Below, piece after piece: positions 5,785-10,556 of a DNA stretch of 64,000 nt. How positions within the stretch are numbered: position 1 is the stretch's first letter; the number at the start of each line of letters is the position of its first letter. A program made the position numbers and the translations under genes. The notes below the pieces were generated by a model. That model searched no databases. It was given only the letters and a program-made list of their open reading frames with translations, and was not told where the DNA came from. The DNA is taken from contig CALVIY010000001.1 of NCBI GenBank assembly GCA_944331955.1, forward strand, positions 22,013-86,012, written 5' to 3'. Source of the DNA: an uncultured Bacilli bacterium (GTDB taxonomy: Bacteria; Bacillota_I; Bacilli_A; RF39; UBA660).

Positions 5785-8403
5785 ATGAAATATGTTTATG
5801 CCTTTAGTGAAGGTAATAAAGATATGAGAGAATTGTTAGGAGGAAAAGGTGCTAATCTTGCAGAGATGACAAGAATAGGATTACCTGTGCCTCGTGGGTT
5901 TACTGTAACAACTGAAGCTTGTTTAAAATATTATGATGATAATGAAGAGATTAGTGATGATATTAAAGAAGAAATCTTTAAAGAGTTAGCTAATCTTGAA
6001 AAGTTAACTGGTAAGGTTATGGGAGATGATAAAAATCCATTACTTGTATCAGTTAGAAGTGGGGCAAGAAGTTCTATGCCAGGAATGATGGATACAATCC
6101 TTAATCTTGGTATGAATGATGAAGTAGTAGAAACACTTGCAAGACTTACAGATAATAAAAGATTTGCTTATGACTGTTATCGTCGTTTTATTCAAATGTT
6201 TGCAGATGTAGTTATGGGCTTTCCAAAGAGTTCTTTTGAATACTTATTTGAAGATATTAAGAAAGAGAAGAATGTGGAACTTGATACTGATTTAACAGCT
6301 GATGACTTAGTTGAAGTTGTAGATAGATATAAAGAAGAATATAGAAAACATGCTGGTGTTGAGTTCCCACAAGATGCTAAAGTACAGTTGATTGAAGCGG
6401 TTAAAGCTGTCTTTAGAAGTTGGAATAATGATAGAGCGATTACTTATAGACGTCTTAATGATATTCCAGGGGACTGGGGTACTGCTGTTAATGTTCAAGA
6501 GATGGTTTATGGTAATATGGGTGATGACAGTGGTACTGGTGTTGCCTTCACTAGAAATCCTGCTACTGGAGAAGCTAAGTTATATGGAGAATATTTAATT
6601 AATGCACAAGGTGAGGATGTAGTTGCAGGTATTAGAACTCCACAGTCTATTGATACTTTAAAAGAAGTGATGCCAGAATGTTTCAATGAGTTTGTTAAGA
6701 TATGTAAAACGCTAGAAGACCATTATAAAGATATGCAAGATATGGAATTTACTATTGAAAATGGTAAGTTATTTATGCTTCAAACTAGAAGTGGTAAAAG
6801 AACAGCAGAAGCTGCTCTTAGAATTGCTGTAGAACTTGTTAATGAAGGTAAGATAAGTAAAGAAGAAGCTCTTTTAAGAGTAGAGCCTAAACAACTAGAA
6901 CAATTATTACATCCTGCTTTTGATAAAGATGCTTTAAGTAATGCCAAAGTTATATGTAAAGGTTTAGCTGCTTCTCCTGGTGCTGCTACAGGACATCTAT
7001 ATTTTAGTGCCGAAGACGTTATGAAAGCACATGATGAGGGAGTAGAAGATATAATATTAGCAAGAGAAGAAACATCTCCAGAAGATATTGAAGGTATGAA
7101 TATCGCTCGTGGTATTTTAACAGTTAGAGGTGGAATGACTTCCCATGCTGCTGTTGTCGCTCGTGGTATGGGTACTTGTTGTGTATCAGGTTGTGGTGAT
7201 ATTGTAGTTGATGTTAATAAGAAGACACTTACTACTAAAGACGGTAAAGTATTTAAAGAAGGAGACTATATTAGTTTAGATGGTTCAACTGGTAATGTTT
7301 ATGGAGAAGAGATAAAAACAGTTCCTGCATCTATTAGTGGAAACTTTGAGATATTCATGAACTGGGCTGATGATGTTGCAGACCTAGAAGTTAGAACTAA
7401 TGCTGATAATCCTAGGGATGCTAAAGTTGCAAGAGACTTTGGTGCTAAAGGTATTGGACTTTGTCGTACAGAGCATATGTTCTTTGATAGTGAACGTATA
7501 TTTAACTTTAGAAAGATGATTGTTGCTCCAACATTAGAAAAACGTGAAGAAGCATTAGATGCGATTTTACCTTATCAAAAAGATGACTTTAAAGAGTTAT
7601 TTAAAGTAATGGATGGATATGATGTTACAATTAGATTCCTAGATCCACCACTACATGAGTTCTTACCTCATACTGATGATGAGATTAAAGCACTTGCAAA
7701 AGACTTAGAGATGGATTTTGAAGCTTTAAAGAATAAAGTTGAGTCACTAAAAGAATTTAATCCAATGATGGGACATCGTGGATGTCGTCTTGATGTTACT
7801 TATCCTGAGATTGCTGTTATGCAAACAAAAGCTGTTATAAATGCTGCTTTAGAAGTAGAAAAAGAGGGTATTAAAGTAACACCTGAAATTATGATACCTT
7901 TAGTAGGGGATGTTAACGAATTAAAATATGTTAAAAATATAGTAGTTGAAACAGCTGATACTATTATTAAAGATAATAACAGTGACTTAAAATATAAAGT
8001 AGGTACTATGATAGAAATACCAAGAGCTGCTTTACTTGCAGATAAAATTGCAGAAGAAGCAGAGTTCTTTAGTTTTGGTACTAATGATTTAACACAAATG
8101 ACTTATGGATTCTCAAGAGATGATGCTTCTAAATTCTTAAAAGATTACTATGATAAGAAAATTTTTACAAACGATCCTTTCGCAAGCTTAGATACTGTTG
8201 GTGTTGGTAAGTTAGTAAATATGGCTGCTGAACTTGGTAGAAGTACAAGAGGCGATATCAAACTAGGTATCTGTGGAGAACATGGAGGAGATCCTAAGAG
8301 TATAGCTTTCTGTCAAATAGTTGGTCTTGATTATGTTTCTTGTAGTCCATTTAGAGTACCTGTGGCAAGACTTGCTGCTGCAAGGGCTAAATTAGAGAAT
8401 TAA
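5785..8403 (+). CDS. ppdK: Pyruvate, phosphate dikinase
   Basis: 872 aa; GGKGANLAEM, phospho-His region GGMTSHAAVVARGMG, C-terminal GICGEHGGDP. Confidence 0.93.
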   Translation: MKYVYAFSEGNKDMRELLGGKGANLAEMTRIGLPVPRGFTVTTEACLKYYDDNEEISDDIKEEIFKELANLEKLTGKVMGDDKNPLLVSVRSGARSSMPGMMDTILNLGMNDEVVETLARLTDNKRFAYDCYRRFIQMFADVVMGFPKSSFEYLFEDIKKEKNVELDTDLTADDLVEVVDRYKEEYRKHAGVEFPQDAKVQLIEAVKAVFRSWNNDRAITYRRLNDIPGDWGTAVNVQEMVYGNMGDDSGTGVAFTRNPATGEAKLYGEYLINAQGEDVVAGIRTPQSIDTLKEVMPECFNEFVKICKTLEDHYKDMQDMEFTIENGKLFMLQTRSGKRTAEAALRIAVELVNEGKISKEEALLRVEPKQLEQLLHPAFDKDALSNAKVICKGLAASPGAATGHLYFSAEDVMKAHDEGVEDIILAREETSPEDIEGMNIARGILTVRGGMTSHAAVVARGMGTCCVSGCGDIVVDVNKKTLTTKDGKVFKEGDYISLDGSTGNVYGEEIKTVPASISGNFEIFMNWADDVADLEVRTNADNPRDAKVARDFGAKGIGLCRTEHMFFDSERIFNFRKMIVAPTLEKREEALDAILPYQKDDFKELFKVMDGYDVTIRFLDPPLHEFLPHTDDEIKALAKDLEMDFEALKNKVESLKEFNPMMGHRGCRLDVTYPEIAVMQTKAVINAALEVEKEGIKVTPEIMIPLVGDVNELKYVKNIVVETADTIIKDNNSDLKYKVGTMIEIPRAALLADKIAEEAEFFSFGTNDLTQMTYGFSRDDASKFLKDYYDKKIFTNDPFASLDTVGVGKLVNMAAELGRSTRGDIKLGICGEHGGDPKSIAFCQIVGLDYVSCSPFRVPVARLAAARAKLEN

Positions 8404-8405
8404 TT

Positions 8406-8843
8406 ATGTCTTTATACGATAGAATGCTTAATATTGCTAATATAGATAAAGAATCTATTATTAGAAAAGCAATAGAAAATACTAAAAGAGACTTAGATGG
8501 ATTAGATTATGAGAGAATGTGTTTAGTATATAGCAGTTATTTATATGAAAATTTAAAAGAATTATCATGCCTTGCTTATATAATAGATACTAATGATTTA
8601 GGTTTTGACTATGAACATAGATTTATTTTAGTACCAATTGATGATAGTAATTACTATTTAGCAGATTTAACTTATAAGCAGTTTGGTAAAGAAGATGAAG
8701 TACTAAGTAAATTATATAATGATGGTTATGAAAAGATAGATAATGATAAATATAATTACTACTTAAGTAAAGTAACTGGTAGTGATAAAGATATAACAAT
8801 TGACGAAAGTTTATTTAAAGAAACAAAGGGACTTGGTAAATAA
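8406..8843 (+). CDS. Hypothetical protein, translationally coupled to ppdK
   Basis: ATG 2 nt after the ppdK stop; 145 aa; no family recognised. Confidence 0.6.
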   Translation: MSLYDRMLNIANIDKESIIRKAIENTKRDLDGLDYERMCLVYSSYLYENLKELSCLAYIIDTNDLGFDYEHRFILVPIDDSNYYLADLTYKQFGKEDEVLSKLYNDGYEKIDNDKYNYYLSKVTGSDKDITIDESLFKETKGLGK

Positions 8844-8856
8844 TATCAAGTCTTTT
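8830..8856 (+). terminator. Rho-independent terminator (copy A of a duplicated hairpin)
   Basis: GACTTGGT-AAATAAT-ATCAAGTC followed by TTTT. The 5' arm overlaps the last codons of 8406..8843. Confidence 0.7.
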
Positions 8857-8911
8857 AGCTATTATAATGATTATTTATTAAAAATATGAATATAATATGA
8901 ATGTATACTAA

Positions 8912-8940
8912 TTGACATTTATGTCAAAATATAGTATATT
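8912..8940 (+). promoter_or_regulatory. Strong sigma-A promoter driving the antitoxin-RNA/toxin unit
   Basis: TTGACA (8912-8917), 17-nt spacer, TATATT (8935-8940). Confidence 0.65.
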
Positions 8941-8968
8941 ATTGTTACATTTAAGGAATGTAATATGT

Positions 8969-9075
8969 AAATGTTAGCCGCTCTTGGATGGTGCGGGTTA
9001 TAAATTATTCCAATCGTGAAATGTTAACCGCTCTCGGATGGTGCGGGATACAAATTATTCCGATTGAAAATGTTT
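8969..9075 (+). ncRNA. Type III antitoxin RNA (ToxI/antiQ-like): 2.2 tandem repeats of 50 nt
   Basis: Unit AAATGTTARCCGCTCTYGGATGGTGCGGGWTAYAAATTATTCCRATYG at 8969-9018 and 9019-9068, with a partial third copy from 9069. Located between a promoter and a terminator, directly upstream of a ToxN-like gene. Potential pseudoknot (CCGC/GCGG helix; loop TTGGA pairs with TCCAA), with one compensatory change between copies. Confidence 0.7.
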
Positions 9076-9112
9076 GAAAACTTTATTCTTTTGAGTAGAG
9101 TTTTCTTTTTTT
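9076..9112 (+). terminator. Strong intrinsic terminator between the antitoxin repeats and the toxin gene
   Basis: 13-bp stem GAAAACTTTATTC / GAGTAGAGTTTTC with loop TTTT, followed by T7 (9106-9112). Confidence 0.8.
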
Positions 9113-9202
9113 ACGAAAAAACGAACTTTTGTACTTTCAAACATATTTATAATATAGTATATTTTAATTACAGATTATATTTTCATTGGGGGTGTTTATA
9201 AA

Positions 9203-9640
9203 ATGAAGGTTCAAACAGGATATATTTATCATATAAAAGATGAATTTTTTGATAAGATTAATGACAAAGGTTTAATGATAAATCATGAAAATGGGCGTGC
9301 TAGACCTACTTACTTCACGATTAAAGATAAGGATATACTATGGTTTATTCCGTTAAGTAGTAAGGTTTCTAAATATCAACCTATAATAGATAAAAAGGTT
9401 AAAAAATACGGGGATTGTCGTTCTATAATGATAAGAGAAATTGCCAATAAAAAATCAGTTATATTATTACAAAACGCTTTTCCTACATTAGAAAAGTATA
9501 TAGATCATCCACATATAATAAATGGTAAGCCACTTAAAGTAATAGATACATTAAAAGATGAAATAACAAGTAATTTTAATTATTTATTATCATTAAAGAA
9601 ACAAGGAATTAATTTATTTTTTCTGATATTGATAAAATAA
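9203..9640 (+). CDS. Type III toxin-antitoxin system toxin, ToxN/AbiQ family endoribonuclease (3' end possibly frameshifted)
   Basis: 145 aa. YIYHIKDEFFDKIND...RARPTYFTIKD..ILWFIPLSSKVSKY resembles the ToxN/AbiQ N-terminal pattern (FY.I...Y..yL.....RPY.g......y.APLSSpK.KH). SD GGGGGTG lies upstream. The gene is preceded by tandem repeats and a terminator. Confidence 0.72.
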   Translation: MKVQTGYIYHIKDEFFDKINDKGLMINHENGRARPTYFTIKDKDILWFIPLSSKVSKYQPIIDKKVKKYGDCRSIMIREIANKKSVILLQNAFPTLEKYIDHPHIINGKPLKVIDTLKDEITSNFNYLLSLKKQGINLFFLILIK

Positions 9641-9659
9641 AAGAAATGATGCTTGAGGA

Positions 9660-9686
9660 ACTTGATAAATAATGTCAAGTCTTTTT
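9660..9686 (+). terminator. Rho-independent terminator (copy B of the duplicated hairpin)
   Basis: ACTTGAT-AAATAAT-GTCAAGT followed by CTTTTT; about 90% identical to 8830-8856. Confidence 0.7.
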
Positions 9687-9749
9687 ATTTTAGTGTTAAT
9701 GTTTTAATATATATGTTATACTCGTATTGGTATGAAAAGGGGAGTTGTA

Positions 9750-10556
9750 ATGAGTAATTCTAAAGGAAAAAAGTCAAAAAGAAAAAAGTATAGTACAAGA
9801 CTAGAAAAAAATAAAAATATTTATTACAAAAATAGTTCATCTAAACAGATTAATGATAATAATAAGAAGTTAGTTTTAATAATTTTGATAATTAGTATAT
9901 TCTTTAATGCTTTCTTTTTATTAAGAATCTCTAGCCTTAATTCTTCTATTAATACTTTAAATTATACAATTGATGAAGAAAAAGAAGAATATAAAAAGGA
10001 AATAAATGAACTAGAGGAAAGGTATATTAACTATTTGTTTTTGGGAGACTCTATTACTGATTATTATGATTTAGATAAATATTTTGAGGGATTACCTGTT
10101 ATAAACAGTGGTGTGTCTGGTAATACGACTGAAGATATTTTAAAAGATATGAAAAGTAGAGTATATGACTATAATCCATCTAAAGTATTTCTTTTAATTG
10201 GTACAAATGATTTAAATCATGATGTTAGTGTTGAAGAAATTGTCTCTAATATTGAAAAAATAGTTAGTGATATTGATAGTCATGAGAAACAAGCTAAGAT
10301 TTATATAGAAAGTGTTTATCCAGTTAATGATAATATAGATGAAGACATTGTAGATGATAGAGATAATGAAGATATAATGGAGATAAATAGTAAGTTAAAA
10401 GAATATTGTGATAAAAACGATTATACATATATTAATCTTTATGATATTTTACTAGATGATGATGATAATTTTAGTGAAGAATATACTGATGATGGGCTAC
10501 ATCCTAATAGTAGAGGATATGAAGTTATTACTGAAGAATTAAAAAAGTATTTATAA
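9750..10556 (+). CDS. Membrane-anchored SGNH/GDSL hydrolase (esterase or O-acetyl-related)
   Basis: N-terminal TM (LVLIILIISIFFNAFFLL), then FLGDSITD, SGNTT, GTNDL, DGLHPN blocks. The ATG at 9750 has the SD AAGGGGAG; the tracked ATG at 9732 is an alternative. Confidence 0.75.
   Translation: MSNSKGKKSKRKKYSTRLEKNKNIYYKNSSSKQINDNNKKLVLIILIISIFFNAFFLLRISSLNSSINTLNYTIDEEKEEYKKEINELEERYINYLFLGDSITDYYDLDKYFEGLPVINSGVSGNTTEDILKDMKSRVYDYNPSKVFLLIGTNDLNHDVSVEEIVSNIEKIVSDIDSHEKQAKIYIESVYPVNDNIDEDIVDDRDNEDIMEINSKLKEYCDKNDYTYINLYDILLDDDDNFSEEYTDDGLHPNSRGYEVITEELKKYL

Follow-up and report, generated by a model that had tools for sequence, protein, structure and literature searches.

ToxI, the antitoxin RNA of the type III toxin–antitoxin system ToxIN, is made of 34–36-nt units in 2.9–5.5 copies, which fold into triplex-stabilised pseudoknots, and the toxin–antitoxin complex is a heterohexamer. 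To our knowledge, phage defence has been demonstrated for ToxIN and AbiQ, not for CptIN. The described system closest to the locus analysed here is CptIN of Eubacterium rectale. The toxin CptN processes its own antitoxin, leaving a 2',3'-cyclic phosphate, and assembles with this RNA, which relieves toxicity, into a 2:2 complex (PMC4627078, PMC3401426). The E. rectale antitoxin (CptI_Er; AAGUUUACCACUGACCGAUAUGUGGUAUAUAAAUGGUCGGGUUGA, as read from the primer in Table 2 of PMC4627078) is cut after its final GA (Rao et al. 2015, PMC4627078). Loop L2 forms an extended A-minor twist with a kink nucleotide, and A29U or deletion of U30 in L2 of CptI_Er abolishes antitoxicity (PMC4627078). E. rectale cptIN stabilised a plasmid, and cptIN of E. 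rectale and R. torques gave no protection in E. coli against six coliphages (EOP 0.7–1.1; PMC3401426). Published repeat lengths are 31–62 nt for toxIN, 40–48 nt for cptIN (33 loci) and 39–57 nt for tenpIN (Blower et al. 2012, Table 2, PMC3401426). Reported cptI repeats are nearly identical, and non-identical repeats are reported for TenpIN (PMC12283969).

Here, we describe a locus in a 64-kb stretch of DNA (the window). We read it as a chromosomal CptIN cassette that is very probably still active, perhaps with an attenuated toxin. Among the related loci are the 80 closest, which come from a genome scan of species-level genomes of uncultured gut Bacilli and have 65–100% toxin identity.

Layout of the cassette and the CptI array

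The elements by which Blower et al. 2012 recognise toxin–antitoxin systems of type III are all present: a promoter, tandem repeats (8969–9075), a terminator and an ORF (Table 1). This is the layout, position by position, that had been proposed from the sequence alone.

Table 1 Features of the cptIN locus, in positions of the window
Feature	Position	Strand	Basis
Left copy of ~30-bp duplicated host segment: end of the upstream 145-aa ORF (last codons GLGK*) with its terminator hairpin	8827..8856	+	direct repeat D1
Sigma-70-type promoter, -35 TTGACA (8912-8917), 17-nt spacer, -10 TATATT (8935-8940)	8912..8940	+	11/12 match
5' leader hairpin UUACAUU-UAAGG-AAUGUAA, transcript start	8945..8963	+	MFE fold
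CptI unit a, 50 nt; S1 8978-8981/8993-8996, S2 8984-8988/9009-9013	8970..9019	+	covariance model, 73.4 bits, E 3e-19
CptI unit b, ~49 nt; S1 9028-9031/9043-9046, S2 9034-9038/9059-9063	9020..9068	+	covariance model, 68.5 bits, E 9e-18
Third-unit stub AAUGUUU	9069..9075	+	sequence
Intrinsic terminator separating antitoxin from toxin, stem of 13 pairs, loop 4, U7	9076..9112	+	terminator scan and MFE fold
Weak second promoter-like site TTCAAA-16-TATATT (putative)	9136..9163	+	9/12 match
Ribosome-binding site TGGGGGTG	9187..9194	+	sequence
cptN toxin gene, frameshift-truncated allele, 145 aa	9203..9640	+	NCBIfam NF047359, 4RMO, 156-aa homologues
Frameshift site TTTTTTC, against TTTTTTCC or TTTTTCCC in intact close relatives, one base lost	9617..9623	+	comparison with relatives
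Out-of-frame remnant of the ancestral C-terminal coding region (-DIDKIKEMMLEELDK*)	9623..9672	+	frame-corrected homology
Right copy of the duplicated segment, hairpin ACTTGA...TCAAGT and T-run	9656..9685	+	direct repeat D1 (given as 9656-9714)

The promoter is the top-scoring promoter-like site across 8300–10000. In this AT-rich interval, promoter-like sites are no more numerous than in shuffled sequence, and the match alone therefore proves little. The weight of the site comes from its conservation among relatives rather than from its score: TTGAC(A/T)...ATAGTATATT is found at an equal distance from the first unit in the majority of 65 listed leaders of related loci, as judged by eye. When each sequence is folded on its own, 53 of the 59 distinct leaders from related loci form a hairpin at the leader position, and its stems vary among relatives (GCAUU/AAUGC, GCACU/AGUGU, GUACU/AGUAC), which suggests a conserved 5' stabiliser or folding insulator. 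For the leader region of related loci, RNAalifold found no consensus structure on a MAFFT alignment that is itself poor. The terminator hairpin (9076–9105), with G–C in 3 pairs only, is the sole terminator-like site in 8300–10000, where 0.2 are expected.

The -10 block of the main promoter is duplicated (8928–8949 versus 9151–9172, 86%; direct repeat D3). The weak promoter-like site between the terminator and cptN could drive the toxin independently of the antitoxin. This site lies within ~55 nt of extra sequence found only in loci with a ~230-nt distance from array to ATG. In addition, a 13-nt inverted repeat (92% complementary) is present between 9067–9079, at the third-unit stub and terminator foot, and 9135–9147, 3' of the terminator; the duplication of the -10 block may have produced it as a by-product.

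The array consists of two 50-nt units and a 7-nt stub, giving 2.1 copies, in keeping with the about 2–3 tandem repeats of CptIN. Its direct repeat (8969–9014/9019–9064; 46 nt, 89% identity, spacing 50) is the sole tandem repeat in the full window that reaches 30 nt within a distance of 150 nt. TRF at default-like scoring did not report the 50-nt repeat, which was recovered by a direct-repeat search and a custom scan. The unit borders are placed by analogy with the E. rectale CptI cleavage site GA^AAG. Cleavage at GA^AAUG would yield units 8970–9019 and 9020–~9068, and the stub would supply the 3' processing junction of unit b. The AAAUG noted earlier at the repeat boundaries is found at 8969, 9019 and 9068 (AAATG in the DNA), and the junction ...GAAAATGTTTGAAAAC recurs in the related loci inspected.

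Each unit contains two helices. In unit a, S1 is the CCGC/GCGG helix and S2 the TTGGA/TCCAA helix that the sequence-only reading had pointed out, and the compensatory change that it had cited in S2, from T8985/A9012 to C9035/G9062, can be read directly from the sequence. Covariation over 111 distinct units from related loci bears out the folded pseudoknot. Over both helices, 97.1% of cells are standard pairs, compared with 24–55% in controls with slid 3' partners. Both sides change in six of the nine pairs: every one of the five in S2, and the outer one of S1, which is U–A in 69 units and C–G in 42, with no mismatches. The pairing gives strong support to an H-type pseudoknot fold of the CptI unit. 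Loop L2 of unit a (8997–9008) is A/U-rich and contains UAUAAAU, a motif whose A's are invariant over the 111-unit alignment; unit b has C where the kink U is expected. The positions of CptI_Er at which mutation destroyed antitoxicity correspond to this motif. A covariance model built from the aligned units matches just units a and b in the window (73 and 69 bits). An Rfam scan of 8700–9900 at E≤10 gave chance-level matches only, the best being Yfr10 on the terminator (E 0.55).

Conservation of the array upstream of homologous toxins, which the sequence-only reading had proposed to look for, is found: about 70 of the 80 loci carry a two-unit array, and in most of the remainder the upstream sequence is too short. 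The period in these 80 loci is 48–51 nt, most commonly 50. The two units are not duplicates of one another. The nearest relative in another locus is a first unit for 70 of 71 first units and a second unit for 68 of 71 second units. When the two units of one array are compared, 42% of the positions in S2 and 51% of those in the 3' tail differ, but only 5–11% of loop positions do, and S2 differs between them in 56 of 62 distinct arrays. Units a and b are non-identical, and each is orthologous across species. Because its paired units are non-identical, the gut-Bacilli clade departs from the published picture of cptI (PMC12283969).

A unit of 50 nt had been taken as unusually long and as a sign of a distinct subfamily. 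This does not hold, as 50 nt is only 2 nt above the cptIN range of 2012 (40–48 nt) and lies inside a continuous CptIN range of 46–51 nt. Toxins 42–62% identical to an intact orthologue of the toxin (P0005) have units of 48–50 nt, and CptN relatives on IMG/VR viral contigs (26–46% identity) have units of 46–49 nt with the AAAUGUU junction kept. These contigs are the better sample of the distant family, as the other distant CptN representatives looked up mostly had short upstream flanks. On these lengths, the CptIN family is continuous from 45 nt (E. rectale) to 51 nt, with the present cassette and its clade at the upper end.

Some relatives contain further repeats. Complete cptI modules lacking a toxin (promoter, 2–4 units and terminator) are present at L068:1010–1190, L048:960–1215 and L059:1060–1215, directly upstream of full cptIN cassettes with units of another sequence class. 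Each may be an orphan antitoxin or a leftover from the loss of a toxin; as cptI-only modules, they may serve as anti-addiction elements. At L077:1080–1150, a 22-nt tandem repeat (GATATTGATTTGATATAGGTTT, at least six copies) lies just upstream of a cptIN promoter.

Toxin family and the frameshift in cptN

The 145-aa ORF matches the NCBIfam equivalog model NF047359, 'type III toxin-antitoxin system CptIN family toxin', with 144.1 bits (cut-off 90, E 2.7e-42), and this CptIN model is the only one matched in NCBIfam. CptN of E. rectale (PDB 4RMO, 4rmo_A) is the only significant solved structure (E 1.2e-16). The AlphaFold (AF2) model of P0005, which is about 92% identical to the 145-aa toxin over the common 140 residues, has a pLDDT of 94.4 and shows the CptN fold, a twisted antiparallel sheet with surrounding helices. 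When the model is compared with the PDB, 4RMO is the best match (TM 0.85, rmsd 2.4 Å), ahead of AbiQ (4glk, 0.71) and ToxN_Bt (4ato, 0.67). The active-site motif IPLSSK aligns with IPLSSR of CptN_Er, giving Ser-Ser-Lys versus the triad Ser-Ser/Thr-Arg. Of the residues that specify adenine in CptN_Er, Ser85 is kept in the pairwise alignment, Asp81 is replaced by Asn and Tyr104 by His. The changes at Asp81 and Tyr104 and from Arg to Lys are conservative. The cassette is a member of the described CptIN family.

The sequence-only reading had labelled the cassette ToxIN/AbiQ-like, with a long repeat that would suggest a distinct subfamily, and a likely abortive-infection or phage-defence module. 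The label holds for the fold superfamily: gene order and fold are alike, and AbiQ is the second-best structure. It fails for the family, where the CptIN model and the CptN structure match far better and refute it. The Pfam search it had suggested, which includes ToxN_toxin, returned no family for the ORF at E≤1; AbiQ and ToxN structures lie below CptN in TM; and the repeat length falls within the continuous CptIN range. With regard to phage defence, a PADLOC scan of the ORF gave 0 matches and no fitting defence-system model, and the cptIN loci studied earlier did not protect against coliphages or abort their infection (PMC3401426). We consider a ToxIN/AbiQ system extremely improbable.

The ORF ends early by a frameshift, which had escaped the first reading of the sequence. 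Intact relatives have TTTTTTCCTGAT (L025) or TTTTTCCCTGAT (L030), and the allele here has TTTTTTCTGAT, with one base missing at 9622/9623. The deletion shortens the toxin from 156 to 145 aa: residues 1–140 are CptN, and residues 141–145 (LILIK) are out of frame. The ancestral reading frame runs on to TAA at 9670–9672, and homologues of 90–92% identity are 156 aa long and span the frame-corrected translation end to end. The lost segment corresponds to a terminal helix, predicted with confidence at residues 143–155 of the P0005 model and conserved across the family alignment. Judging from the model, the toxin could be inactive or changed in function after loss of this helix.

At least six metagenome contigs, drawn from several samples, code for the identical 145-aa protein, and these contigs represent two diverged lineages with different downstream genes. 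The frameshift is therefore not an assembly error.

The shortened gene shows a pattern of constraint. Between the ORF and that of the frameshifted locus L007, 15 nt differ, all of them synonymous (~82 synonymous and 353 non-synonymous sites); L007 was retrieved by exact protein identity, which biases this comparison towards zero amino-acid changes. This bias does not affect L025, L027 and L029, which come from the genome scan: in the first 140 codons, the intact L025 differs by 22 nt and 0 aa, and L027 and L029 differ by 23–24 nt and 2 aa. Since the differences are nearly all synonymous, also in the unbiased comparisons, the truncated toxin gene is subject to purifying selection, and a dead pseudogene is unlikely. 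The array is constrained as well: it differs from that of L007 at 2 of 107 nt. The stretch that follows the new stop has 7 changes in 32 nt and the spacer roughly 14 in 90 nt (by eye), so that the array has diverged about ten times less than the adjacent non-coding DNA.

These data bear on the reading that the cassette is decaying, with a pseudogene left after the frameshift killed the toxin and an array that survives for lack of time. The removal of the C-terminal helix agrees with it, as do the relic (half a unit and a terminator, without toxin) in L103 and the empty site in L102 described below, and several cptIN loci are reported to have shortened toxins (Blower 2012, PMC3401426). It is, however, contradicted by the exclusively synonymous substitutions between the two frameshifted lineages, by the tenfold lower divergence of the array, and by the occurrence of the truncated allele in several samples and with two different downstream genes. 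Decay is therefore improbable.

A further reading holds that -1 slippage on the U6 run (UUU UUU C) still makes the full-length toxin, the frameshift then being a two-isoform form of regulation. A -1 slip on the T6 run at 9617–9622 would restore the ancestral frame exactly (...LFFSDIDKIKEMMLEELDK), and the 30 nt after the run are identical in both frameshifted lineages. However, the absence of change in these 30 nt is not significant, and in the last 20 nt of the old frame the lineages differ by 7 changes, several of them non-synonymous. Moreover, the heptamer is A UUU UUU rather than the canonical X XXY YYZ, and no stimulatory structure was found. We regard slippage as highly improbable.

Insertion site and genomic neighbourhood

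The cassette lies between a 145-aa gene adjoining pyruvate phosphate dikinase (PPDK) and a GDSL lipase gene. It is an insertion, with a ~30-bp duplication of the 3' end of the neighbouring gene on its flanks. The right copy of the duplicated segment provides the ancestral toxin gene with its stop codon and terminator, and the intact toxins of relatives end in the duplicated host codons LGK* and use the host terminator. In L102, which has an empty site, PPDK, the 145-aa gene and the lipase gene follow in succession with a single copy of the segment. L103 has a relic at 1990–2080, a site equivalent to 8860–9700, where a cptI unit is reduced to its 3' half and stub and terminator are retained; promoter and toxin are absent, and an epimerase gene follows directly.

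The gene after the cassette varies. It is the GDSL lipase gene here (and in L102, which lacks the cassette) and encodes a 566-aa protein in L007 and L009; there is none in L013. Thus, L013 has an intact cassette without the lipase gene, and L007 a frameshifted cassette with a different downstream gene. Because relatives show empty, relic and intact states, the site is variable, and the locus is a small variable region in which the cassette has been acquired and has decayed in some relatives. A cassette with a ~89% identical toxin is present in an unrelated gene context, suggesting that the cassette moves between sites. Distant CptN homologues are found on 15 plasmids and 55 IMG/VR contigs; a search of GenBank phage genomes found none.

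The upstream 145-aa ORF (8406–8843) directly follows PPDK in the related loci examined, with or without a cassette, and has no family in Pfam or NCBIfam scans. Its relatives at 46–47% identity are on contigs on which PPDK was not detected nearby. As a candidate part of the cassette it was rejected, since it stays beside PPDK in L102 and L103, which have no cassette, and since another cassette sits in a different gene context.

Proposed working and comparison with known type III systems

In the proposed working of the cassette, a constitutive promoter would transcribe the leader hairpin and two ~50-nt CptI units, each of which takes the form of an H-type pseudoknot whose S1 has 4 bp and S2 5 bp and whose A/U-rich loop is conserved. 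The terminator would stop the majority of transcripts, and read-through would yield the cptN message, leaving a surplus of RNA antitoxin. Homology with E. rectale CptIN predicts that the endoribonuclease CptN cuts the precursor at each GA^AAUG junction and remains bound to the freed pseudoknots as an inactive protein–RNA ring. Once the antitoxin supply stops, free CptN would cleave cellular RNA, leading to growth arrest. In the lineage of this locus, a 1-nt deletion has removed the C-terminal helix of the toxin, the shortened protein and the array being kept by selection.

Because the shortened protein and the RNA array are conserved by selection, the cassette is most likely active. Some points weigh against this reading. 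CptN of this clade shares only about 31% identity with the single CptN that has been characterised; the truncation takes a confidently predicted, family-conserved helix; and the relic in L103, at the equivalent site, indicates that such cassettes do decay.

A more tentative joint reading, which we consider possible but doubtful, is that units a and b are distinct conserved pseudoknots, differing mainly in S2, that the toxin without its C-terminal helix is kept under selection, and that the orphan cptI modules are anti-addiction elements. If the distinctness of a and b is true, it would imply either an obligatory asymmetric CptN2:CptIa:CptIb complex or selection against mispairing of neighbouring units. 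The truncated toxin under selection may be an attenuated or re-purposed nuclease.

There is little that is new in kind in the cassette, as a curated NCBI model already recognises the toxin and the architecture is that of a textbook type III toxin–antitoxin system. Its use lies in a well-supported covariation model for the CptI antitoxin RNA, for which there is no matching Rfam family. CptIN is abundant in uncultured gut Bacilli, and the non-identical units, the truncated but conserved toxin, the orphan arrays and the empty and relic sites provide natural variants for the co-evolution of antitoxin array and toxin.

Compared with ToxIN (P. atrosepticum, B. thuringiensis) and AbiQ/antiQ, the cassette has the type III logic in common: a repeat RNA that is processed by the toxin and inhibits it, an endoribonuclease of the same fold superfamily, and a terminator that sets the RNA:protein ratio. 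The toxin family differs, as shown by the TM of 0.67–0.71, compared with 0.85 for CptN, and by the missing Pfam ToxN_toxin match. TenpIN is alike in being a type III system with long repeats (39–57 nt) in about 2 copies. Its toxin belongs to another family, with no relation at the sequence level and only the CptIN model matched in NCBIfam.

The resemblance to CptIN of E. rectale is closest. The order of promoter, about 2 tandem repeats, terminator and toxin is alike, and the toxins are homologous (about 31% identity, TM 0.85), with a PLSS(R/K)xxKY active-site motif in common. The antitoxins are likewise H-type pseudoknots in which L1 is short and L2 is long and A/U-rich, with UAUAAAU inside it. 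The dimensions differ: the unit is 50 nt here and 45 nt in E. rectale, with a 5' tail of 8 versus 6 nt, an S1 of 4 versus 5 bp, an L1 of 2 versus 1–2 nt, a 5-bp S2, an S2–S1 loop of 4 versus 3 nt and an L2 of 12 versus 9 nt. The unit junction is GA AAUG(UU) here and GA^AAG(UUU) in E. rectale. The toxin here has Asn and His at the positions of Asp81 and Tyr104 of CptN_Er and, unlike E. rectale CptN, is truncated before its C-terminal helix, and the array is composed of non-identical units that are orthologous across species.
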